DNA from: Candidatus Magasanikiibacteriota bacterium
GTDB taxonomy: Bacteria > Patescibacteriota > Patescibacteriia > Magasanikbacterales > GWA2-37-8
Reading direction: 5' to 3'
DNA length: 64,000 bases
Assembly: GCA_036744835.1 (NCBI GenBank)
Contig: DAIOHD010000001.1
Coordinates: forward strand, 547,910-611,909
In this document: in pieces, positions 3,963-49,875 of the stretch
Numbering within the stretch: the first letter of the stretch is position 1
How the letters are laid out: every line of letters begins with the position of its first letter
Translations under genes and position numbers: made by a program
Notes under the pieces: generated by a model
The model's input: only the letters and a program-made list of their open reading frames with translations
What the model was told of the DNA's origin: nothing
Database searches by the model: none

Positions 3963-4727
3963 TTAATAATTTCTGTTTAAAGCATACAAATAACCACCTC
4001 TACAATCAACTAAAAAATTATTTTTTCTAAGAAACCCTGTGATTTCTTCATGTCTGTGGTTTGTTATATCATCGTGATATTCCAGAGAAATTCTTTTAAT
4101 TCTAGAAACAAACTCTGGGGATAGGTTTAAAATAATATCATATTCAGCGCCTTCACAATCTAATTTAAAAAAATCAATATGACTAATATTTTTTTCAAAA
4201 CAATATTTTTCAAGTTCCATATTTTGTATTTGCACCTCCTCGTCATCTTCGTCTCTTTTATATATACTATGACAACCGTTGTGTTTTTTAGAAATAAAAA
4301 ACTTTTCAACCGTGTTTTTATTTGAAACAGCAATATTTTCAACAAAAATATTATTCAATTTATTTAACTTTATATTTTCTCTTATTTTTTCAGCAAGTTC
4401 TTTTACCGGTTCAAAAGCAAACACCTTTCCATTTTTTGCTTTTACTCCCGCATAGATAGTAAAAAATCCGTTATTTCCTCCAATATCAAAAACTATGTCA
4501 TTTTCATTTATTTGCATAAACGGAGGATTATAAAATTCATAATGCCAAATTTCAACCAACATTGAAATATCGGCTTTCCCTATTTTATTTTTTTCAATTT
4601 TAAACAAAATACCGTTTCCTAATTTAATAAATTTGATCGGAAAATATAAAAATTTGTTTAAAATTATTTTAAACCAATTACTTTTTAATATTACTAAAGC
4701 GCCTAAAACTCGCAAATAATTTATCAT
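3963..4727 (-). CDS. FkbM-family methyltransferase
   Basis: FDIGGNNGFFT, FAFEP and LKLDCEGAEYDIL motifs typical of FkbM methyltransferases. Confidence 0.7.
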   Translation of the reverse strand: MINYLRVLGALVILKSNWFKIILNKFLYFPIKFIKLGNGILFKIEKNKIGKADISMLVEIWHYEFYNPPFMQINENDIVFDIGGNNGFFTIYAGVKAKNGKVFAFEPVKELAEKIRENIKLNKLNNIFVENIAVSNKNTVEKFFISKKHNGCHSIYKRDEDDEEVQIQNMELEKYCFEKNISHIDFFKLDCEGAEYDIILNLSPEFVSRIKRISLEYHDDITNHRHEEITGFLRKNNFLVDCRGGYLYALNRNY

Positions 4728-4744: not shown

Positions 4745-6034
4745 TTATTTTTTATTTTTTAAAAAAGAAAAAATTAAAACAGGTCCTATAGAATAAGACA
4801 TTAGTGTCGCCCAAGCTGCACCGGTTAAACCAAATTTTGGTATAAAAACAATGTTTAATAATATGTTTAAAATCATTGAAAAAAAACTAAGATTAAAAAT
4901 AGTATATAAATGATTTTCAGTTAGGAAATAATAGTTTAGCCCCCAAGTCAAAAACAAGCCAACCCCCGACCAAACATAAATTTGTAAAATTACCACAGAA
5001 CCACCGTAAGCTGACCCAAAAAATAAATTTATAAACCAATTTGCAAGCAAAGTTGAGGGTATAGCTATCAAAATAGCGATACTGGCCAATAGTAAATATA
5101 AATTTTTTAATCTTTTTTTATATTTTTCTTCATCTATTTTTTTTGCATTTATTATAGCCGGAAATAACGAAGCACAAATTAAAGTTGGAATAAAATACCA
5201 AATTTCTACCAATCGTACCGCGGCAGCATAAAGACCAACGGCTGTTGAACCAAGATAATATCCTATCATCACTTGATCTATCCTCATATAAATAAAAGCC
5301 GCAGCTGAAGAAATCATCAAAAGCCAAGAAACTGATAAAATTTCTTTTGCAATTATTTTATCGAATTTCCAATCGAATAATTTTAAGCCACTTTTAAAAT
5401 AATTAAACACATATAGAATACTATTGAACAGATAATCCCCGACATAAACCAACATAAACCAAATAATTCCTTTACCGGATAAAATTATCATAATTTTAAG
5501 AACTGAGCTTAAGATCGTGGTTATTATTTGCACTATAGAATTCTTTTTTGCTTGAACATTTGCTTGAAAATAATTAGAAATAACACTAAAAGAAGACAAG
5601 ATAAAAGTTAAAGCAAAAACGATACTTAAATTACGAATTATTAAGGAATCTATAATTAGAAAAGCACCAAGTGTAGTAATCAAAAAAGCTAAAAATCCTC
5701 CGCCAAGAGTAAGTATAAAAGCTGTTCCCAAAAGTTTATCTCTTTTTTCCGGAAATTTTACCAAATCACGAATTAAAATACTACTTATTCCTAAATTAGC
5801 AATAAAACTAAACATACCCGTAAATGCCAAGGCATAACTCAACATCCCAAAATTACTTGGCTCAAGATATCTTGCCACCCAAATATTTACTATTACCGAA
5901 ATAATATTGAACATCTGTGCAAAAAACATCCACCCTGTATTGGCAAAATACTTCCTAAAACCACCATGTTCCAAAACCCAATACCAACGTTGCGGAATAA
6001 TGATTTTAAATTTTTCAAACAGTTTTTCGAACAT
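4745..6034 (-). CDS. Polysaccharide flippase (Wzx/MOP-family, multi-TM)
   Basis: 429 aa, about 12 predicted TM helices, MOP-flippase-like composition. Sits in the glycan cluster. Confidence 0.6.
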   Translation of the reverse strand: MFEKLFEKFKIIIPQRWYWVLEHGGFRKYFANTGWMFFAQMFNIISVIVNIWVARYLEPSNFGMLSYALAFTGMFSFIANLGISSILIRDLVKFPEKRDKLLGTAFILTLGGGFLAFLITTLGAFLIIDSLIIRNLSIVFALTFILSSFSVISNYFQANVQAKKNSIVQIITTILSSVLKIMIILSGKGIIWFMLVYVGDYLFNSILYVFNYFKSGLKLFDWKFDKIIAKEILSVSWLLMISSAAAFIYMRIDQVMIGYYLGSTAVGLYAAAVRLVEIWYFIPTLICASLFPAIINAKKIDEEKYKKRLKNLYLLLASIAILIAIPSTLLANWFINLFFGSAYGGSVVILQIYVWSGVGLFLTWGLNYYFLTENHLYTIFNLSFFSMILNILLNIVFIPKFGLTGAAWATLMSYSIGPVLIFSFLKNKK

Positions 6035-10882: not shown

Positions 10883-11007
10883 AAATTTGATTAGCTATGA
10901 GAATAATTTTCAATTTTTAATCTTACAATTTTTAATGAATTTTTAATTTATAATTTTCAATTCTATGTCATTTTATGAACTTTATAACTTTATGAACTTT
11001 ATAAACT

Positions 11008-12120: not shown

Positions 12121-12251
12121 AGATCGATCTATATAATTTATGTTATTTCTAAATAAATAAAATTTTTAATTTTTAATTTTACAATTTTTAATTAATTTTT
12201 AATTATCAATTTTTAATTTCGTATTCTATTTAATCTTTAAATCTTGCAATA

Positions 12252-16253: not shown

Positions 16254-16470
16254 AAAGATTACAAGATTACAAAAATTACAAGATTGAAAGATTAAATAAG
16301 ATACGAAATACGAAATTATACGAAATTACGAACCGAAATTAAAAATTGATAATTAAAAATTTATTAAAAATTGTAAAATTAAAAATTAAAAATTTTAACT
16401 ATATTAAAAAGAATATTTTTATAATAAAAAACCACCCTGATTTTAACATCAGAGCGGTTTTAATTATTCT

Positions 16471-16602
16471 TTATTTTCCACAATCACATCCACAACCACA
16501 AGTTTCTTCTTCTTTTTCTTCACACTTGCCGTCTGGACCGCAGTCACAGCCTTCTTTACCACATTCACAAGGTTCTTGTGGGTTTAGTTCATCTAAGTTC
16601 AT
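16471..16602 (-). CDS. Small Cys-rich metallothionein-like peptide (43 aa, 9 Cys), not in the ORF track
   Basis: Reverse-strand ATG at 16602 gives MNLDELNPQEPCECGKEGCDCGPDGKCEEKEEETCGCGCDCGK* (CxC/CGC clusters). A perfect TTGACA-17-TATAAT promoter sits immediately upstream. Confidence 0.45.
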   Translation of the reverse strand: MNLDELNPQEPCECGKEGCDCGPDGKCEEKEEETCGCGCDCGK

Positions 16603-16643
16603 AGTTTTTGTTTACGGCTACTAAAAGTAGCTACTCGGGGTAT

Positions 16644-16672
16644 ATTATAGCACATTTTGGCAGTTTTGTCAA
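16644..16672 (-). promoter_or_regulatory. Consensus sigma70 promoter overlapping a TTGRC-N6-GTCAA palindrome (shared motif, copy a)
   Basis: Minus strand reads cTTGACAaaactgccaaaatgtgcTATAAT. The plus-strand motif is gcacattttggcagttttgtcaag. Confidence 0.6.
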
Positions 16673-16836
16673 GGTCTTAATTTAGCTAGTTATAGCCAAA
16701 TTAAGAATTATAAAAATTACAAAGATTACAAAAATTACAAAGATTATGTTTTTTGGCTAATATTAAATAAAAATAAAAAACCGCTAAAATTAGCGATTTT
16801 TCAATTTATTTTTTATTAATTCATAATCTTACCAGC

Positions 16837-26456: not shown

Positions 26457-27044
26457 CTATTTGATGAAATATTCAATCGAACTTTCTATAGTTTTGAGGG
26501 CCTCTGGGACAAAAGGTAGTAATATAGAGGCAAAAGAAACTAAGTGAGGAATCAAAAAAGATTCACCTAAATACTCCATAAAATATTCTGCCAATGGAAA
26601 TTTGCCAATAAAATAAAAAACCATTCCTAAACCAATAACTCCTTCCAAAGCTCCAAAAAGCATACCTAAAAATCTATTAATACCACTGATAAATGGTAAA
26701 CGAGTTATAAAACCCAACATTTTGTCTATAATCCAAAAAGCCAAACCCACCAAACGATTGATTAAGAAGAAAACGATAATAAAAATCAAAACTTTCGAAA
26801 AATTGGCTTGCCAACCGGTAATATCCATCAACCAATTGGATGCAGCTTCATAGTAACGAGTAGCTAAAAATACTCCAAACACTGTCCCTAAAAGTGAACC
26901 TAGAGTGTGTATTAAACCAAACCAAAGACCAAAAAGGCCGAAACTGGCAATGATGATTATAAAAATGACGTCGAGTAAGGACATATGGTAAAAATTTTTA
27001 ATTTTTAATGAATTTTCAATTTTTAATGAATTTTCAAATCGCAA
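26457..27044 (-). CDS. cvpA: CvpA-family membrane protein
   Basis: Four-TM small protein with CvpA-like composition. Confidence 0.55.
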   Translation of the reverse strand: MRFENSLKIENSLKIKNFYHMSLLDVIFIIIIASFGLFGLWFGLIHTLGSLLGTVFGVFLATRYYEAASNWLMDITGWQANFSKVLIFIIVFFLINRLVGLAFWIIDKMLGFITRLPFISGINRFLGMLFGALEGVIGLGMVFYFIGKFPLAEYFMEYLGESFLIPHLVSFASILLPFVPEALKTIESSIEYFIK

Positions 27045-27072
27045 TTTTCAAACAATCTTTAAATCTTATAAT

Positions 27073-28632
27073 TTACTTCTCCAGCCGCGGAAAAAGTGGT
27101 TGTAATTCTCCTATCTTATTTCCTACTGTCAATTCCACCCAGGTCTGTAAATCTTCCAATTTTTTAGCATTTTCTTTGACAGGATCAAGTCCGAGCTGGA
27201 TAAAAATCTTCTCTGAAGTTTCAGGCATCACCGGATATATCATTATCGCAATATGGCGTAAACTTTCGCATAAGTGGTAAAGCAAATCTTTTACTTCTTC
27301 GGTTTTGCCTTCTTTACTCATTGTCCACGGTTTTTTATCGGAAATCAATTGATCACAATAAGTAATAAACTTCCAAGTACTTTCAAGTGCGCGATCAAAA
27401 CGCCATTTGTCCATATTTTTTTGGTATTCCGGCCAAATCTCGTCGGTTAAATATTTTATCAAATCATTGTTTACATTTTTTACTTTTGGTACTTCACTAT
27501 CGGAATATTTCACCACCATGGATAAAACACGGTTGGTTAAATTTCCCAAACCGTTGGCCAAATCAGCATTAAAACGAACCTCAAATTTACTTTCGGAATA
27601 ATCACCGTCATTATCAAAAGGAATTTCGCGCATCAAGAAATAACGCACTGATTCCAGCGGATATTTTGTTACAATTTCCATTGGATCAATAACATTACCT
27701 ACTGTTTTGCTCATTTTTTGACCATCAACAGTCATCCAGCCGTGTACAGCAATAGTTTTGGGCAATTCCAAACCAGCCGACATCAACATCGCCGGCCAGA
27801 GCAAAGAATGAAAGCGGTTGATTTCTTTGCCAATAACATGTGCATCTGCAGGCCAATATTTTTTCAATAATTTTTCGTCTTCACCATATCCCAATGCGGT
27901 CACATAATTGGTCAAAGCGTCAAACCAAACATACATTACCTGGGTTTTATCTCCCGGCACGGGCACGCCCCAAGATAATTTGTCCGAAGACCTGGAAATG
28001 GAAATATCTTCCAATCCACTTTTTAAAACATTATACATTTCATTGTAGCGGCTTTCCGGATAAACAAAATCCTTGTTTTTTTCAAACAAAAATTCAAGCG
28101 GTTCTTGATATTTGGAAAGTTTGAAAAAATAATTTTCTTCTTCCAATAATTCTGGCTCTTTGTTGTGGTCCGGACACTTACCATCCACTAAATCTTTTTC
28201 GGTTTTATAAGCTTCACACCCTACGCAGTATAAACCACTGTATTTTTTTTTATAAATATCCCCGCTCTTTTCCGCGGCTTTCCAAAATTCTTGTGCGCGG
28301 TCTTCATGGCGCTTCTGCGTAGTACGGATGAAATCGTTGTTAATGATATTCCACTGATCGGCAAGATTCACATATTCCGCGGAAGTTTGCGCGGCGAAAT
28401 CAGCCACATCCATACCTTTTTCCTTGGCGGTTTTCAACATCTTTTGACCGTGTTCATCGGCTCCGGTTAAAAAATATACATCTTTACCGAGCATTCGTTG
28501 ATAGCGGGCCATGACATCGGTATAAAGTAATTCCAAAGCAAAACCGATGTGGGGAGAGGCGTTGGCGTAGGGTATAGCAGTGGTAAGATAAAATTTTTCT
28601 TTTTTGGACATACTTATTTTTTTTAATTTCAA
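27073..28632 (-). CDS. metG: Methionyl-tRNA synthetase
   Basis: PYANASPHIGFA (HIGH) and KMSKT motifs. Confidence 0.9.
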   Translation of the reverse strand: MKLKKISMSKKEKFYLTTAIPYANASPHIGFALELLYTDVMARYQRMLGKDVYFLTGADEHGQKMLKTAKEKGMDVADFAAQTSAEYVNLADQWNIINNDFIRTTQKRHEDRAQEFWKAAEKSGDIYKKKYSGLYCVGCEAYKTEKDLVDGKCPDHNKEPELLEEENYFFKLSKYQEPLEFLFEKNKDFVYPESRYNEMYNVLKSGLEDISISRSSDKLSWGVPVPGDKTQVMYVWFDALTNYVTALGYGEDEKLLKKYWPADAHVIGKEINRFHSLLWPAMLMSAGLELPKTIAVHGWMTVDGQKMSKTVGNVIDPMEIVTKYPLESVRYFLMREIPFDNDGDYSESKFEVRFNADLANGLGNLTNRVLSMVVKYSDSEVPKVKNVNNDLIKYLTDEIWPEYQKNMDKWRFDRALESTWKFITYCDQLISDKKPWTMSKEGKTEEVKDLLYHLCESLRHIAIMIYPVMPETSEKIFIQLGLDPVKENAKKLEDLQTWVELTVGNKIGELQPLFPRLEK

Positions 28633-28716
28633 ATATCAAATTTCCAATTTCCAATCAATTTCAAAATCCAAATTTCAAATTTTGATATTGGATATTGGAT
28701 ATTTGACATTTAGTGA
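28633..28716. repeat. AT-rich palindromic spacer (tttccaatt/atattggat words)
   Basis: tcaaatatcaaatttccaatttccaatca ... tgatattggatattggatatttgacatt forms an imperfect inverted repeat. Confidence 0.5.
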
Positions 28717-29388
28717 TTATTTTCGTGAAATAATCACGACGAATTCCCCTCTTTCATCTTTCATCTTCTCCATAATTTCATAGATTGTTCCGCGGTAAAT
28801 CGTTTCAAACTTTTTGGTCAATTCGCGACACACGACAATTTGTCTTTTCGGATCTAATAACTCTTTTAATTCTTGCAAACATTTCAAAATGCGATGGCCG
28901 GATTCGTAAAAAACAACTGTTTCCTCTGCCTGCACCACTTCCTTGAAATATTTTTGTCTTTTATTTTTGTGCGGAGGAAAACCCATAAATATAAATCTGT
29001 CAGTCGGAAAACCGGAAATGGACAGGGCCATTACTACGGCGGAAACTCCCGGAATCGCCACGATATTTTCCCCTAGCCCTTTTTTAATCAAATATTCAAT
29101 AAGTAAGCCACCTGGGTCAGAAATCCCCGGAGTACCGGCATCAGTAACTAAACCTACATTCTTGCCGGATAAAAGCATGTTTTCAATTTCTTTGAATTTC
29201 GCCATATCACTATGCTGATGAAAATTGACCAACTGTTTATTGATTTCATAATGATCCAACATATTTTTGGTCACCCTGGTATCTTCACACAATATCAAAT
29301 CAACGCTTTTAAAATTTTCCAAAGCGCGCAAAGTAATATCACCCAAATTTCCAATAGGTGTAGCGATAATATAGAGGGTGCCAGGCAT
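28717..29388 (-). CDS. rsmI: 16S rRNA (cytidine1402-2'-O)-methyltransferase
   Basis: Tetrapyrrole-methylase fold with the N-terminal LYIIATPIGNLGDIT motif. Confidence 0.85.
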   Translation of the reverse strand: MPGTLYIIATPIGNLGDITLRALENFKSVDLILCEDTRVTKNMLDHYEINKQLVNFHQHSDMAKFKEIENMLLSGKNVGLVTDAGTPGISDPGGLLIEYLIKKGLGENIVAIPGVSAVVMALSISGFPTDRFIFMGFPPHKNKRQKYFKEVVQAEETVVFYESGHRILKCLQELKELLDPKRQIVVCRELTKKFETIYRGTIYEIMEKMKDERGEFVVIISRK

Positions 29389-29904: not shown

Positions 29905-30017
29905 ATATTTATATAATTTAATAGTAAATTAAATAATAAAGTTTATTTTATAGTAAAGACTACAATAGAATAAAAGGAGTTCTTAATTTTTAATTTTCAA
30001 TTTTACAATTTTTAGTG

Positions 30018-30103
30018 AATTTTTAGTGTAACAATTTACAAACCGAACATTGATAATTGAACATTGATAATTAATTAAAAATTTTAAATTAAAAATTGAA
30101 AAT
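30018..30103. repeat. ~86-bp AT-rich repeat, copy A, 3' of nifU
   Basis: Near-identical to 30836-30922 (taacaatttacaaacYgaacattgataattgaaMattgataattaattaaaaattttaaattaaaaattgaaaatt). Confidence 0.6.
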
Positions 30104-30108
30104 TTTCG

Positions 30109-30792: not shown

Positions 30793-30835
30793 ACTTTATT
30801 TAATTTTAAATTTTCAATTTTGCAATTTTTATTTT

Positions 30836-30922
30836 AGTTAATTTTTAATGTAACAATTTACAAACTGAACATTGATAATTGAAAATTGATAATTAATTAA
30901 AAATTTTAAATTAAAAATTGAA
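30836..30922. repeat. ~86-bp AT-rich repeat, copy B, between nifS and nifU
   Basis: See copy A. About 95% identical. Confidence 0.6.
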
Positions 30923-30925
30923 AAT

Positions 30926-32158
30926 TTATTTATATTTCGGATGTTTCTGATTTGCCATGTTCACCGGACTGATTTCGCGCAATAATTTCACAATTTCCGG
31001 TAAATATTTCATCATGTAATCAATATCTTCTTTGGTGTTTTCTTTTCCAAGTGAAAAACGTAAACTACCGTGGGCATATTCATAAGATAATCCAATAGCT
31101 CGTAATACATAAGAAGGTTCCAAAGATTCTGAAGTACACGCCGAACCAGTAGAACACATTATGCCGTATTCATCCAAATAAAGTAACATGGCTTCGCCTT
31201 CCACATCTTCAAACGTAATATTTACGTTGTTGGGTAAACGATCATCCCCTATTTGTGGCCCATTGAGTCTAACTTTGTCTATTTTTTTACTAACTTGTTG
31301 CCATAAATAAGCGGATAATTTACGAACTCGCGCAGATTCTTTTGGGCCGGATTTTTGCGCTAATTCTAAAGCTTTAGCTAAACCTATAATTCCCGAGACA
31401 TTTTCCGTACCTGCGCGAACCTTTTTTTCTTGTGCACCACCAAAAACAAGTGGTTTGATTTTTACACCGCGACGAACGTATAAAACACCCGTTCCTTTGG
31501 GGCCATAAATTTTACCACCATTTATAGTCATCAGATCTACATGTAGTTTTTCGGTGTCCAAATTAAGATAACCGGCCGCCTGGCAAGCATCGGTATGAAA
31601 ATAAGGATAAGCGGTTTTATTTTCTTTGCGATATCGCAAAAGTTCACGACCAATTTCAGCTATCGGTTCAATCGTGCCGATCTCATTATTGGCATACATA
31701 GTAGAAATCAAAATGGTGTCCGGTCGAATCGCTTTAATAATATCTTTGGCGGAAACTTTTCCTTCTTTATCAACTTTGACATAAGTGATTTCAAAACCTT
31801 GTTTTTCCAATTCTTCCAGAGGGTGCAGGACGGCATGATGTTCAATGGAAATAGATATAATATGTTTTCCAATACTTTTATGAGCTTGGGCAATACCGAA
31901 AATCGCTAAATTATCCGATTCTGTACCGCTGCCGGTGAAAATAATATTTTCAGGAAGCGCATGAATAATTTCAGCCACGGTTTTACGAGCCAACGAAATA
32001 GCCGATTGTGCTTCTCGGCCAATTTTATATAAAGATGAAGGATTACCAAAAACATCCGTAAAATACGGCATCATGCTTTTAACCACTGTTTTATCAACCG
32101 GAGTGGTCGCAGCATGATCAAGATAAACTTGACGGATTTTTTTTGGTTTAGATAACAT
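30926..32158 (-). CDS. nifS: Cysteine desulfurase (NifS/IscS)
   Basis: PLP-dependent class V fold. SLGKEN near the C-terminus and an active-site Cys region. Confidence 0.9.
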   Translation of the reverse strand: MLSKPKKIRQVYLDHAATTPVDKTVVKSMMPYFTDVFGNPSSLYKIGREAQSAISLARKTVAEIIHALPENIIFTGSGTESDNLAIFGIAQAHKSIGKHIISISIEHHAVLHPLEELEKQGFEITYVKVDKEGKVSAKDIIKAIRPDTILISTMYANNEIGTIEPIAEIGRELLRYRKENKTAYPYFHTDACQAAGYLNLDTEKLHVDLMTINGGKIYGPKGTGVLYVRRGVKIKPLVFGGAQEKKVRAGTENVSGIIGLAKALELAQKSGPKESARVRKLSAYLWQQVSKKIDKVRLNGPQIGDDRLPNNVNITFEDVEGEAMLLYLDEYGIMCSTGSACTSESLEPSYVLRAIGLSYEYAHGSLRFSLGKENTKEDIDYMMKYLPEIVKLLREISPVNMANQKHPKYK

Positions 32159-32197: not shown

Positions 32198-32587
32198 TTA
32201 CAATTGAGTAAGTTTAGTTTTTGATAAAATTTTCAAAATATCATCATTAATTTTTTTCATTTTATCTTTTAAACAACATTTAATATTTTTACATTTTTTC
32301 GTCGCGCAATAACAAGGTAGTACGGCGCAACCACCCTCCATCGCTACGATAATATCTTTTAGCGAAATTTCTCTAGCAGATTTTGCCAAAGAATAACCTC
32401 CGTTTACTCCGCTAGTAGCTTTTATCAATCCAACTAAACGCAATTTACGCGCAATTTTTTGCAAAAAAAGAAATGAGACACCGGATTGTTTGGCAATATC
32501 TTTCAAGCTAATACAATATTTCTTGTCTTTGGGGACAAGTTTTAATAGTTGAATAGCATAATCGGTTTCTTTATTCAAAGTAAACAT
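32198..32587 (-). CDS. Rrf2-family transcriptional regulator (IscR-like)
   Basis: Rrf2 helix-turn-helix plus a Cys cluster (CYCATKKC). Heads the nifS-nifU-fdx operon. Confidence 0.75.
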   Translation of the reverse strand: MFTLNKETDYAIQLLKLVPKDKKYCISLKDIAKQSGVSFLFLQKIARKLRLVGLIKATSGVNGGYSLAKSAREISLKDIIVAMEGGCAVLPCYCATKKCKNIKCCLKDKMKKINDDILKILSKTKLTQL

Positions 32588-33467: not shown

Positions 33468-33481
33468 ACAAATAAATAATT

Positions 33482-33603
33482 AACTCAAAAGTCAAAGGTC
33501 AAAAGTCAAAACTTTGGTGTCCCAATTAAATCGGGACGAATTTTATTATAGATATTGCGAAGCAATACAATAGTTTTGAGATTTGCGTTTTGAGATTTGA
33601 GAT
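33482..33603. repeat. MITE-like element copy 3 (short core)
   Basis: aactcaaaagtcaaaggtcaaaagtcaaaac | ggtgtcccaattaaatcgggac..attgcGAAgcaat | ttttgagatttgcgttttgagatttgag. Confidence 0.6.
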
Positions 33604-34730: not shown

Positions 34731-34862
34731 AATGACTCAAAAATATCAAATGACAAATATCCAATTTCCAATCAAGTTCAAAATCGAAATGTCAAAATTT
34801 GTAATTTGATATTTTTTATTGATTTGACATTGGATATTGGAAATTTGAAATTATAATAATAT
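34731..34862. repeat. AT-rich palindromic spacer (tttccaat/atattggaaatt words)
   Basis: aatatccaatttccaatcaag...gacattggatattggaaatttgaaatt. Confidence 0.5.
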
Positions 34863-40786: not shown

Positions 40787-41176
40787 CTAATCACTCAATT
40801 TTTTCTTAAAAATTTCTAATAACTTTTCCAAATTAAGCGGTTTCAAAAAAAGGGATTCCGAAAAAGATTCTTTCACTTCGTTATACAATGGCGAATGAAT
40901 GCTTGCAGTCATAAACATCACCTGCGGACACTCTTCGCCGAGAGCTTCAGAATCAGCTTCTATTACTCTGATAACATCAAGTCCAGAAATAAAGGGCATG
41001 TGGAGGTCTGTCAGAATTATTTTGATTTCTTTTCTGTTTTGAGAAAATTTTCCTAAACCTTCTTGTCCGTTTTTGGCAATAATAACCTCCAAACCAGCGA
41101 AACGAAAAAATTTCGCCATCGCAAAAAGCGTAAGTTCGTCATCGTCAATAATTAAAATCTTCTTTTTTTCAGTCAT
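40787..41176 (-). CDS. Stand-alone response-regulator receiver (CheY-like) protein
   Basis: KILIIDDDELT with acidic pocket, conserved Asp and Lys positions. No output domain. Confidence 0.75.
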   Translation of the reverse strand: MTEKKKILIIDDDELTLFAMAKFFRFAGLEVIIAKNGQEGLGKFSQNRKEIKIILTDLHMPFISGLDVIRVIEADSEALGEECPQVMFMTASIHSPLYNEVKESFSESLFLKPLNLEKLLEIFKKKLSD

Positions 41177-44224: not shown

Positions 44225-44257
44225 AAAATATAATTTTTATAAAAATTATTTAAATTC

Positions 44258-44373
44258 AAAACTCAAAAGTCAAAAGTCAAAACTTTGGTGTCCTGAATAA
44301 ATCAGGGCAATTTTATTATATATATCGCGAAGCGATACGATAGTTTTGAGATTTGCGTTTTGAGATTTGAGAT
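44258..44373. repeat. MITE-like element copy 4 (short core; sister of copy 3)
   Basis: caaaactcaaaagtcaaaagtcaaaac | ggtgtcctgaataaatcagggc..atcgcGAAgcgat | ttttgagatttgcgttttgagatttgag. Confidence 0.6.
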
Positions 44374-46107: not shown

Positions 46108-46238
46108 AGCAAAAAAAATAATTTCAAATTTCCAATATCCAATATCAAATCAATTTCAAAATCCAAATGTCAAAATTTGAAATTTGTCATTTGATATTTG
46201 TTATTGATTGGAAATTGGTAATTTGACATTTGTAATTT
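46108..46238. repeat. AT-rich palindromic spacer (tttccaatatccaat / attggaaattgg words)
   Basis: Long imperfect inverted repeat between the PBP2 start and the typA stop. Confidence 0.5.
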
Positions 46239-48059: not shown

Positions 48060-48154
48060 ATATTTATTTTGGCAATAATATCATATTTTAGCAAAAAAAG
48101 CAAGGATTACCGAGATATTGAATATTGGATATTGAATATTGGATATTGAATATT

Positions 48155-48186
48155 AAAAAAATAAAGGAGCCCGGGTTAGGGGCTCC
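48155..48186 (-). terminator. Intrinsic terminator of the small secreted Cys protein gene
   Basis: ggagcccctaacccgggctcc followed by tttatttttttaat on the minus strand. Confidence 0.65.
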
Positions 48187-48204
48187 TATGAAAGCGGTTA
48201 TGAG

Positions 48205-48444
48205 TTACTTCATCAAAGCAAAGATTTTTTCCTCTTCGCCATAATGAAGTACTTCGATGCAAAGCTCTTTTTTTTCAGAATACATTTCGCATTCCTCATA
48301 AAGAGCCCTCTTGCATATTCCGATCTTGACCGGGAGACTTTCATCTCCTTTCATGTGCTTAGCATACACTTCGCACATGTCATTAGCCATAAGACCAGAA
48401 ACAGCCATAAAAACGACCATTGCAAACATAAGTGATTTCTTCAT
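48205..48444 (-). CDS. Small secreted Cys-containing protein (79 aa, signal peptide, 4 Cys)
   Basis: AGGAGA RBS. Signal peptide MKKSLMFAMVVFMAVSGLMA. Carries the shared promoter motif and a ~200-nt structured leader. Confidence 0.5.
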   Translation of the reverse strand: MKKSLMFAMVVFMAVSGLMANDMCEVYAKHMKGDESLPVKIGICKRALYEECEMYSEKKELCIEVLHYGEEEKIFALMK

Positions 48445-48640
48445 GATACTCTCCTTTTAGATAATTTTATGATTCGGACCGCTTTGACTTGTAAAGAACT
48501 TTTTCCTATTTCTAGCTCTCATTCTTTTGAATAAGGGCTTGATAAAAGAAAAACTCTCCTAAATATGGAGAGATATGTCAAAAGATTTGTTTGTATCGCT
48601 TTTATCCTCTCTCCAAGATAAAGTTGATACGATTTGGGTT
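48445..48640 (-). promoter_or_regulatory. Structured 5' leader with alternative antiterminator/terminator hairpins (riboswitch- or attenuator-like)
   Basis: Minus strand reads uuGGAGAGAGgauaaaagcgauacaaacaaaucuuuugacauaUCUCUCCauauuuaGGAGAGuuuuucuuuu. The CUCUCC segment can pair either upstream (GGAGAGAG) or downstream (GGAGAG plus U-run). Confidence 0.4.
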
Positions 48641-48658
48641 TTTATTATTTAACTACAT

Positions 48659-48688
48659 AGTTTAGCACATTTTGACGGTTTTGTCAAG
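48659..48688 (-). promoter_or_regulatory. Promoter with TTGAC-N6-GTCAA palindrome (shared motif, copy b)
   Basis: Minus strand reads cTTGACAaaaccgtcaaaatgtgcTAAACT. The plus-strand motif is gcacattttgacggttttgtcaag. Confidence 0.55.
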
Positions 48689-48867
48689 CCCTAAAAGTGG
48701 CTAATATTAGCGAAATTGAAAATTACAAAAATTTAAAAGATTGCAAAAATTACAAAGATTGCTGTTTTTTGGCTAGGATTAGATAAAATAGTATAAAATA
48801 CTACAAAATTTGGCTTATTGTAAACAAAAAACCCTCGCGTCTGCGAGAGTAAAATATTTGTTTCTTA

Positions 48868-49596
48868 TCATTCCTGTTTTTCTTTTTTCTCTTTTTGAAA
48901 AACAACAATAGAAAAAATATTTTTTTTAAAGGTTGCGGCTTCTTGAAAAAAAGAAGATCCCAAAAAAACAATTGCATCATTTCCTGCTTTTTGAAACAAA
49001 GAAAACCCAATTAAACCAAGTATCACATCATTTCCTGCTTTTTGAAACAAAGAAAATCCGCAACATATTATACTTGCGTCATTTCTTGCTATTTGGAGTA
49101 AAGAAAATCCGAAAAAGCCAATCATCGTATCGTTTCTTGCTATTTGGAGTAAAGAAAATCCGAAAAAAAACATACTCGCATCATTTCCTGCTTTCTGAAA
49201 CAAAGAAAATCCGAAAATAATAGTGCCGTTATGTCCTGCTATTTGGAGTAAAGAAAAGCCTATAGCAACAACTGCATCATTTCCTGCTTTTTGAAACAAA
49301 GAAAATCCGAAAACAATAGTGCCATTAATTCCAGCTTTTTGGAACAGAGAAATGCCAAACCAAGAAAAAGCATTTTTTTCCGCTAACTGAAAAAACATGC
49401 AAATAGAATATACACTCCCTTCGAAATTAATTCCTCCAAAAACAGAATAAACATTCTTTCCTATCCTCCAAGGATATGAAATAAAAAAAATTCCAATAAG
49501 ATGCATGGGATTGTTAGTTATTAACAATCCGGCCAATACGGTAGCTACAACGGCCACTGTTAAATTTACAACGTTAGCGATATTTCTTTTCATCAT
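48868..49596 (-). CDS. Membrane/secreted protein built of ~9 tandem 17-aa repeats (GFSLFQKAGNDAxxxxx)
   Basis: True start is MMKRNIANVV at 49596 with a GGAGG RBS 6 nt upstream. The track ORF, extended to 49803, runs through the gene's own promoter. The DNA contains a 51-bp tandem array. Confidence 0.5.
   Translation of the reverse strand: MMKRNIANVVNLTVAVVATVLAGLLITNNPMHLIGIFFISYPWRIGKNVYSVFGGINFEGSVYSICMFFQLAEKNAFSWFGISLFQKAGINGTIVFGFSLFQKAGNDAVVAIGFSLLQIAGHNGTIIFGFSLFQKAGNDASMFFFGFSLLQIARNDTMIGFFGFSLLQIARNDASIICCGFSLFQKAGNDVILGLIGFSLFQKAGNDAIVFLGSSFFQEAATFKKNIFSIVVFQKEKKEKQE
48953..49390. repeat. 51-bp tandem repeat array (~8-9 units) inside the repeat-protein gene
   Basis: Recurring unit gcatcatttcctgctttttgaaacaaagaaaatccg..., read directly from the sequence. 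Confidence 0.6.
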
Positions 49597-49638
49597 GACA
49601 AACCTCCAAATAAATAAATTGTTAAAGATCAACAAAGT

Positions 49639-49668
49639 ATTGTGATACATTTTAACAATTTTGTCAAC
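49639..49668 (-). promoter_or_regulatory. Promoter with TTRAC-N6-GTCAA palindrome (shared motif, copy c)
   Basis: Minus strand reads gTTGACAaaattgttaaaatgtatCACAAT. The plus-strand motif is atacattttaacaattttgtcaac. Confidence 0.5.
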
Positions 49669-49797
49669 CCTGGCGCTGAGCGCCAGTAAAGCCACTCTTA
49701 GCGTGGCCCGCGAAGATAAGTCGGAGTTATAGTTACGCTTAACATAGACCCGCTCAGCGGGGGCGTGACAATAAATAAAAGTGACTAATATTAACCA

Positions 49798-49826
49798 AAA
49801 CAAAAAACCGCTTTTTCAGCGGTTTT
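49798..49826 (-). terminator. Intrinsic terminator of the acetyl-CoA synthetase gene
   Basis: aaaccgctgaaaaagcggttt followed by ttgtttt on the minus strand. Confidence 0.6.
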
Positions 49827-49875
49827 TGTTTTTAAAATTTACAATCCTATAACTTTTTACTTTTAACTTTCAACT

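Follow-up and report, generated by a model that had tools for sequence, protein, structure and literature searches.

The 64,000-nucleotide (nt) stretch analyzed here (the window; positions 547,910 to 611,909 of contig DAIOHD010000001.1, assembly GCA_036744835.1, from a Candidatus Magasanikiibacteriota bacterium) is a housekeeping chromosome segment with a G+C content of about 34%, in which nearly all genes lie on the minus strand. Three minus-strand sites in this window, here termed (a), (b), and (c), carry a shared motif that an earlier reading made from the letters alone (the sequence-only reading) took for the promoter and overlapping operator of a three-gene regulon. The open reading frames (ORFs) that it placed downstream are present: a gene for a 43-amino-acid Cys-rich peptide follows (a) (16471..16602, minus strand), a gene for a 79-amino-acid protein follows (b) (48205..48444, minus strand), and a gene for a 242-amino-acid membrane protein with 17-amino-acid (51-nt) repeats follows (c) (48868..49596, minus strand). 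The present analysis indicates that the three sites are probably not an operator but copies of a near-optimal promoter of the sigma-70/sigma-A type that is used throughout the lineage, and that the genes behind them are most likely strongly transcribed units and not members of a private three-gene circuit for metal sensing.

Core promoter (a) occupies positions 16644..16672 on the minus strand and reads TTGACA-aaactgccaaaatgtgc-TATAAT, with the −35 element at 16667-16672 and the −10 element at 16644-16649. Its 17-nt spacer can be parsed as AAA-CTGCC-AAAA-TGTG-C, and the site, in which TG precedes the −10 element, scores 12/12 on the promoter consensus, in agreement with its earlier description as a textbook TTGACA-17-TATAAT promoter. 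Core promoter (b) (48659..48687, minus strand; −35 at 48682-48687, −10 at 48659-48664) reads TTGACA-aaaccgtcaaaatgtgc-TAAACT, with a spacer parsed as AAA-CCGTC-AAAA-TGTG-C and a −10 element that becomes TATACT in two relatives. Core promoter (c) (49639..49667, minus strand; −35 at 49662-49667, −10 at 49639-49644) reads TTGACA-aaattgttaaaatgtat-CACAAT and is a degenerate copy of the class, with a spacer parsed as AAA-TTGTT-AAAA-TGTA-T. The exact TTGACA hexamer and the 17-nt spacer are thus common to all three sites, and the match of the −10 element to TATAAT is 6/6 in (a), 4/6 in (b), and 4/6 in (c). The extended −10 element is TGTGC in (a) and (b), whereas (c) has TGTAT and retains three of the four bases of TRTG.

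The three sites are more alike than chance allows. The 21-nt pattern TTGACAAAAYYGYYAAAATGT has exactly three matches without mismatch in the window, all on the minus strand and all with the −10 element 17 nt further on. At up to three mismatches there are four matches against 0.17 expected, a number reached by none of 100 shuffled sequences, and the sole additional match is a weak plus-strand site at 32221. When the central pentamer of the spacer is left free, sites (a) to (c) show 0, 0, and 1 mismatches, and the next-best sites in the window show three. The earlier claim that one motif is common to three minus-strand promoters is therefore borne out, and these promoters are of the sigma-70 type. 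Sites (a) and (b) are alike over a much longer stretch than the 24 nt then given to the motif, with 79% identity across 113 nt, and (c) has just the core in common with them.

The same element recurs in many other genomes. A scan of GTDB, with one genome per species and the exact 21-mer with a YYGYY pentamer as query, returned 97 stretches, and the matches are concentrated in metagenome-assembled genomes (MAGs) of Magasanikbacteria, Patescibacteria, Saccharibacteria, and Parcubacteria. The largest number of exact core copies on one contig, seven, is found on JAKLGL010000001.1 (563 kb). About 62 of the roughly 100 GTDB sites have a proper −10 element at exactly 17 nt, against about 3% estimated from base composition. 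Positions that the query left unforced are also conserved in these sites, namely G22 (53/64), C23, the TATAaT hexamer, and GTT at positions 35 to 37. The extended consensus is TTGACAAAAyyGyyAAAATGTGcTATAaT....GTT, with YGT at motif positions 34 to 36, and the element that defines the class can be written as TTGACAAAA-N5-AAAATGTGcTATAaT followed by a YGT start. Literature searches on TTGACAAAA and on a Patescibacteria promoter consensus returned nothing relevant, and AAAATGTGCTATAAT was found in no paper.

The central pentamer behaves differently from its flanks. A metagenome scan in which it was left free (pattern TTGACAAAANNNNNAAAATGTGCTATAAT) found TTGACAAAA-N5-AAAATGTGCTATAAT in at least 120 contigs, with 118 distinct sites among the matches listed, and in this set, to which the following counts apply, the pentamer is unconstrained yet G+C rich. 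It fits YYGYY in 7 of the 118 sites, and the GTC ending that a dyad would require is likewise present in 7, where about 4 are expected; A is rare at position 11 and G is rare at position 13. The orthologs of (a) show the same in four species, where TTGACAAAA and AAAATGTGCTATAAT are invariant and the pentamer is CTGCC, TCATT, or AGGCC. The pentamer of (b) is CCGTC in the window and in the related locus L066 and GTGTC in the related locus L198. (Numbers with the prefix L denote loci used for comparison; related loci come from MAGs labelled Patescibacteria or Candidatus Magasanikbacteria. L066, a MAG contig with accession CALCZC010000025.1, is syntenic with the window and about 80% identical to it; L198, a short metagenome contig, is about 89% identical.)

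These observations bear directly on the operator proposed by the sequence-only reading, namely an inverted repeat over the −35 element, given there as TTGRC-N6-GTCAA and here as TTGRC-N6-GYCAA, at which a metal- or stress-responsive repressor of the ArsR, MerR, or TetR kind would control just the three genes. The dyad is indeed perfect in (b), GTCAA is the commonest variant among the matches selected for YYGYY, and the product of gene (a) is Cys rich; on the other hand, (a) has TTGGC and (c) has TTAAC, one mismatch each. With the pentamer free, the GTC ending is confined to 7 of 118 sites (about 4 expected), and the orthologs of (a) lose the dyad (TCATT) between invariant flanks, such that the half-site shows no covariation in orthologous promoters, a result that the sequence-only reading had itself listed as contradicting its proposal. 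The similarity of the three window pentamers to YYGYY is better attributed to shared ancestry and a local G-Y-Y preference than to a binding dyad. Promoters of the MerR type have an over-long spacer of 19 to 20 nt with the operator inside it, and the spacer here is 17 nt. No gene for an ArsR-, MerR-, or TetR-type regulator was found among the annotated neighbors, that is, among the 27 proteins around the sites that were scanned against Pfam and that represent a part of the ORFs of the window. The only regulatory domain among the scanned proteins is that of a stand-alone response-regulator receiver protein of 129 amino acids with no output domain (40787-41176). The Cys-rich peptide has no match to a metallothionein family, and elsewhere the core precedes genes for tRNAs, transfer-messenger RNA (tmRNA), a glycosyltransferase, and many unrelated small proteins. 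The operator model is thus largely refuted by the free pentamer and, taken as a whole, is highly improbable; neither the three-gene regulon nor the metal- or stress-responsive character assigned to it finds support in the comparison.

The preferred interpretation, a lineage-wide promoter, accounts for the conserved unit, which consists of a C-rich base or two, TTGACA, a 17-nt spacer, TATAAT, and a YGT start 5 to 6 nt later. The spacer follows a fixed design of AAA, a free G+C-rich pentamer, AAAA, and TGTG plus one base, the latter corresponding to the TRTG extended −10 element of Gram-positive bacteria. Such a promoter would be recognized by the RNA polymerase holoenzyme alone, with sigma region 4 on the −35 element, region 3 on the TG, and region 2 on the −10 element, while the two A-tracts would set the geometry of the spacer. 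Transcription from it is predicted to be strong, to start from a G, and probably to be for the most part constitutive. In the lineage, the class would serve stand-alone, highly expressed units, namely stable RNAs together with numerous small proteins that are secreted or reside in the membrane.

Several observations weigh against this interpretation. Promoter activity, the start site, and the terms "strong" and "constitutive" are all inferred from sequence. Both scans forced the A-tracts, and their conservation rests on the ortholog alignments and on a partial enrichment of A in unselected promoters, where A occupies positions 7 to 9 in 66 to 74% of cases and positions 15 to 18 are merely A/T rich. 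The lineage of the window favors G12 (7/9) and Y13-Y14 (9/9) in the pentamer, which may reflect some weak additional constraint on it there, but no dyad. Within the window the class is discrete, with the three sites at 0 to 1 mismatches and no other until three, and the site of a specific factor would look alike. Finally, a palindrome upstream of some of these promoters, described below, hints at regulation of at least a subset.

The discreteness of the class in the window also favors a different reading, in which a transcription factor peculiar to the clade, or an alternative sigma factor, binds the whole 29-mer and reads the two A-tracts, seen as a direct repeat GAC-AAAA/GYY-AAAA spaced 9 nt apart, and in which the class is distinct from housekeeping promoters. 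The A-tracts are invariant in orthologs while the adjoining pentamer drifts, and resemblance to the class is limited to about 8 of 35 TTGACA-N17-TAnnnT promoters taken without selection, as such a reading would have it. Nevertheless, all three recognition elements (−35, −10, and the extended −10 TRTG) are canonical for a primary sigma factor, and spacers with an A-tract, a GC gap, and a second A-tract are general in strong promoters, as sort-seq in E. coli has shown (PMC12641261). A handful of Firmicutes MAGs (L007, L045, L059, L070, and L089) also contain the identical 29-mer together with a good −10 element. Ordinary promoters of the window and related loci, although usually A/T mixed or T rich before the −10 element, also show TTGACAAAA and a T at position 19, and graded near-matches to the motif exist; the motif is thus partly generic to the lineage, with the three sites at the optimal end of a range. 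A dedicated spacer-binding factor is accordingly rated as quite improbable.

The genes and RNAs that follow the class promoters are diverse. They include tmRNA (L032), tRNAs (L009, L028, L128, L175, and L224), a glycosyltransferase-like gene at six loci, phage-like genes, ORFans, and many unrelated, often small proteins. They are not repair genes, which bears on the idea of control by LexA and the SOS response. Rfam searches on 35 related loci likewise identified tmRNA and tRNAs behind some of the motif promoters. The possibility that these promoters are mainly for tRNAs was rejected, since aragorn finds a tRNA or tmRNA behind just about 12 of 203 sites. An N-terminal hydrophobic segment is present in 60 of 154 downstream proteins against 377 of 1,710 ORFs of a crude background set (odds ratio 2.3, p = 6e-6). 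Judged by these downstream sequences, the class defines no functionally coherent regulon and shows a bias to stand-alone units, namely stable RNAs and small secreted or membrane proteins.

Two further leaders were noted behind class promoters. A stretch of about 340 nt that is 81% conserved and ORF free directly follows the promoter in L019 (7530-7870), L052 (3510-3850), and L209; it matches no Rfam family, as holds for several conserved ORF-free leaders behind class promoters, and is a candidate novel noncoding RNA. The leader GTTACAATCAAAAAGCGTTGGAGAGAGCGCGGAAG follows the promoter in L040, L108, L132, L206, and L211, and in at least three of these loci it lies about 190 nt before a lipoprotein gene (MKKLITT...ACGGS).

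Upstream of the core, part of the class carries a second element. In 26 of 230 distinct class promoters (about 11%), exactly 9 nt separate the −35 element from an upstream palindrome, TTGGCTAAnnTTAGCCAA, which is centered at about −53.5. The distribution of its offsets has a sharp peak at 9 nt (28 matches), and the histogram of mismatches at this offset is bimodal, with 0 to 3 or at least 7 mismatches at all sites but one, which has 5; the range from 4 to 7 is nearly empty, and the other promoters fall at 8 to 16. This indicates that the palindrome is a discrete element. Changes in its arms are one-sided in 45 cases and compensated in 2, and because they are noncompensatory they fit a site bound by a protein. 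A hairpin or terminator formed in RNA was rejected for the same reason. In the window there are five palindrome-like matches against 0.66 expected, and they occur solely at the three promoters. The proximal element of (a) (TTGGCTATAACTAGCTAA, 16682..16699) lies 9 nt upstream of the −35 element, has three mismatches to TTGGCTAANNTTAGCCAA, and is conserved in the orthologs L103 and L099, and that of (b) (TTCGCTAATATTAGCCAC, 48697..48714) lies at the same distance and has two mismatches. Both promoters have a distal copy about 72 nt further upstream. The fifth copy belongs to (c), where the palindrome and its 9-nt linker occupy 49772..49798 (TTGGTTAATATTAGTCAC at 49781-49798) and have been displaced from the promoter by an insertion. 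The palindrome is also found at many other loci, for example L004, L018, L041, L073, L121, and L195.

These features suggest that a dimeric DNA-binding protein could read TTGGCTAAnnTTAGCCAA and activate or repress the palindrome-bearing subset, the core itself remaining an ordinary promoter; the three window genes would then be coregulated through the palindrome and not through the spacer. The discrete nature of the element, its fixed 9-nt offset, the one-sided arm changes, its restriction within the window to the three promoters, and its conservation in the orthologs of (a) all agree with such control. However, no candidate regulator was identified, and hydrophobic N termini downstream of palindrome-bearing promoters do not differ significantly from those downstream of the others (12/22 versus 48/132, p = 0.16). 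In three cases an insertion parts the palindrome from the −35 element by about 100 nt and the genes persist, which means that the palindrome is dispensable or that those promoters are deregulated. The A/T-rich center of the palindrome moreover sits where an UP element would be located. Regulation of this kind is therefore conceivable, though rather doubtful. The sequence-only reading had also proposed that the three genes form a coregulated set of small proteins; the enrichment of hydrophobic N termini and the presence of the palindrome at all three promoters agree with it, but the spacer dyad as its means does not, and coregulation through the upstream palindrome is possible.

A more specific and somewhat more speculative proposal is that TTGGCTAAnnTTAGCCAA is the site of a Patescibacteria-specific dimeric regulator that switches stand-alone genes for small secreted, membrane, or Cys-rich proteins, including all three in the window, and that hairpin insertions at the −35 element rewire this control. 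If this were so, the palindrome-controlled set would plausibly comprise surface or host-interaction factors of these episymbionts, and hairpins resembling miniature inverted-repeat transposable elements (MITEs) that insert at the TTG of the −35 element would uncouple promoters from the palindrome.

The insertion at (c) is one such hairpin element. It is a G+C-rich element of 101 nt with three hairpins (49668..49768, minus strand; hairpin cores CGCTNAGCG), and it lies between a vestigial TTG at 49769-49771 and the working −35 element. From the palindrome it is exactly 9 nt to the vestigial TTG and 113 nt to the working −35 element. A 90% copy of the element occurs in L066 at a different locus, upstream of typA, flanked by TTG...TTG, and in L129 a further promoter of the class is preceded by a copy with 70% identity. 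In L066 the ortholog of (b), and in L099 that of (a), likewise have a hairpin-ended insertion between the palindrome and the −35 element. In these relatives the hairpin elements are located at 4334-4405 and about 5025-5120 of L066, at about 2290-2430 of L099, and in L129. The insertions fall exactly on the TTG(A) of the −35 hexamer and shift the palindrome by about 100 nt. Among 42 such hairpins in 1.5 Mb of loci, 10 adjoin TTGACAAAA without a gap. The elements look like MITEs or repetitive extragenic palindromic (REP) sequences that prefer the −35 element of this promoter class.

The longer similarity between (a) and (b) has its own explanation. Upstream of the proximal palindrome, (a) carries repeats of TTGTAATnT with a 9-nt period and the distal palindrome-like copy at 16753-16770 (together 16700..16770, minus strand), and (b) has the counterpart, with 9-nt periodic repeats and a distal copy at 48769-48786 (together 48715..48786, minus strand). 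The order in both is distal half-palindrome, 9-nt periodic repeats, palindrome, 9-nt linker, and core. From this arrangement, (a) and (b) are read as paralogous copies of a promoter cassette of about 115 nt that is reused before nonhomologous small genes in this genome, and their likeness beyond the core arises because the cassette was copied.

The surroundings of (b) and (c) show how the cassette is distributed. The interval from typA to the acetyl-CoA synthetase gene (48100-49870 of the window) is a variable island in three close relatives: the window has (b) and (c), L066 (4330-5250) has just (b), and L198 (1-3030) has (b) and three other small genes. The small genes of the island are lineage specific and each has its own copy of the cassette, so that L198 contains four copies within 3.3 kb, each before a different small gene. 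It could thus be argued that the likeness of the sites stems mainly from a cassette that moves or recombines, perhaps in connection with the hairpins, and on which the promoter rides or with which it is copied, and that identity reflects recent copying and not selection at each position. The 113 nt common to (a) and (b), the four L198 copies, the hairpin elements that adjoin or interrupt the −35 element, and the established concept of putative mobile promoters (PMC3488235) speak for this. Against it, the core is kept across genomes of 33 to 60% G+C whose flanks are otherwise dissimilar, and it precedes conserved orthologs (the glycosyltransferase and the Cys-rich peptide), which calls for selection and not recent copying. 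Copying accounts for the spread of the cassette within the lineage but not for the sequence of the core, and as an explanation of the three sites it is unlikely.

Other families of short A/T-rich repeats with a periodicity of 9 to 10 nt (AATTTTTAATGAATTTTC, GATATTGGATATTGG, TTTGAGATTTGCGTTTTGAG, and CAAAAGTCAAAAGTCAAAAC) are present in many intergenic regions of the window, with some pairs 96% identical. They are located at 10905-10962, 12161-12218, 26996-27053, 28622-28735, 29985-30105, 30802-30927, 33479-33601, 34739-34852, 44250-44371, and 46117-46230. A possible explanation is that they serve other promoters as phased upstream elements or as curved DNA.

The predicted 5′ untranslated region of transcript (a), 41 nt long (16603..16643, minus strand), lacks a Shine-Dalgarno sequence and can form a hairpin (GCTACT-TTT-AGTAGC, 16617-16631); it is nearly invariant in four species, exceeding the conservation of the coding sequence. 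The transcript would end at an intrinsic terminator at 16428..16461 on the minus strand. The 43-amino-acid peptide has nine Cys residues with CxC motifs and contains neither aromatic residues nor His. Its orthologs (P0001 to P0004) occur in the same atpC-peptide-lgt order in four species, and their alignment shows eight columns in which Cys never varies, an indel that keeps the reading frame, and synonymous substitutions; by these signs it is a real, conserved gene. The homologues found are just four unnamed proteins of 42 to 43 amino acids, none with a Pfam domain on record, and a search of the peptide against Pfam (E ≤ 0.1) retrieved neither a metallothionein nor any other family. The earlier epithet "metallothionein-like" fits its composition, which is small and Cys rich with conserved Cys and no aromatic residues, and as a description of composition only. 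L092 was considered as a further ortholog of (a) and rejected, as it has a short similar leader without the Cys-rich peptide.

Gene (b) begins 208 nt past the putative start, behind a leader (48445..48652, minus strand) that contains a terminator-like hairpin at 48554-48572, about 80 to 100 nt after the start. This leader has 92% column identity in three species (the window, L066 at about 4780-5000, and L198 at about 300-510) and no match to an Rfam family; it could be an attenuator, a riboregulator, or a small RNA. The 79-amino-acid protein has a hydrophobic, signal-peptide-like N terminus and four conserved Cys residues, with orthologs in L066 and L198. The 242-amino-acid repeat protein behind (c) is lineage specific and absent from both of these close relatives. 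A search of the whole window against Rfam at the gathering threshold retrieved tRNA-Glu only, and permissive E-value scans around the three sites gave nothing credible, the best hit being SR1 at 19 bits (E = 0.23), which is treated as chance.

The remaining genes of the window include the ATP synthase operon, lgt, typA, the ADP-forming acetyl-CoA synthetase, pyruvate:ferredoxin oxidoreductase, FeFe hydrogenase, PBP2, a Mur ligase, queH, and tsaE. Several MAGs labelled "uncultured Gammaproteobacteria" (L004, L052, L073, L103 [CAYRYH01], and others) share the gene order of the window, the Cys-rich peptide, and the promoter cassettes, and their Gammaproteobacteria labels are suspected to be wrong.

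Promoters of the Patescibacteria (candidate phyla radiation) are barely characterized; in a cross-phylum survey this group is represented by 188 starts inferred from transcriptome sequencing of a single species (PMC12641261). A nearly invariant 29-bp promoter is in this respect a ready-made candidate for a strong native promoter in the genetic tools under construction for Patescibacteria, and it offers a simple marker in metagenome bins for stand-alone, probably highly expressed genes, small RNAs, and small secreted proteins. The palindrome and the hairpin insertions at the −35 element provide leads on regulation and promoter turnover in reduced genomes. More generally, what appears as a shared operator in one window can be the consensus promoter of a lineage.

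The known systems closest to the accessory features resemble them in part. The operators of ArsR/SmtB and MerR-type regulators are short dyads that overlap a promoter, as seen at (b), and the gene behind (a) is Cys rich; unlike those systems, the dyad here is not conserved, the spacer measures 17 nt, the scanned neighbors include no regulator, and the motif stands at unrelated genes. REP and MITE-like elements, including REP doublets forming hairpins (REPINs; PMC8049555), are likewise short G+C-rich intergenic hairpins in several copies at differing loci in relatives, whereas the hairpins described here are flush against or inside the TTGACA of the −35 element and flanked by TTG...TTG, and no REP-associated tyrosine transposase (RAYT) or other transposase was identified. 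The putative mobile promoters defined by Matus-Garcia, Nijveen and van Passel in 2012 (PMC3488235) may have a parallel in the closely similar promoter regions that precede nonhomologous genes of one genome, as in (a) and (b) and in the four copies of L198. In contrast to them, neither a transposase nor defined ends were recognized for the cassette, and conservation of its core extends well past a single genome, a sign of functional constraint.

The core itself corresponds most closely to promoters of the primary sigma factor. Strong sigma-70 promoters of diverse bacteria have a spacer of four regions (an AT-tract, a GC-enriched gap, a second AT-tract, and a G-rich Ex/TRTG region), verified by sort-seq in E. 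coli, and the same study (Kuo et al. 2025; PMC12641261) describes TRTG as the extended −10 element of Firmicutes, an UP region whose 3′ end is rich in C, and a YRY start element. The class follows the same order, with a C at the 3′ end of its upstream region and YGT at positions 34 to 36; the published AT-tracts, however, are mainly thymine and are statistical tendencies, while the tracts of the class consist of adenine alone and hardly vary. The class has TTGACA-17-TATAAT in common with the TRTG promoters ("−16 region") of Gram-positive sigma-A (PMC12641261; PMC2613000), as well as TGTG at −17 to −14 followed by one free base, and (a) and (b) conform fully. It differs from TRTG promoters of the Bacillus subtilis type in that its spacer is almost invariant throughout (AAA...AAAA) and its 29-mer is kept near verbatim across the Patescibacteria lineage. 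The +1G rRNA promoters of B. subtilis, which sense the initiating nucleoside triphosphate (PMC3113569), offer a further parallel, as the class keeps a G where transcription probably starts and stands before genes for stable RNAs, although this likeness is purely an analogy. Set beside these systems, the class has the characteristics of a well-defined, strong sigma-70-type promoter with an extended −10 element, and it stands out because it hardly varies across a lineage that has received little study.

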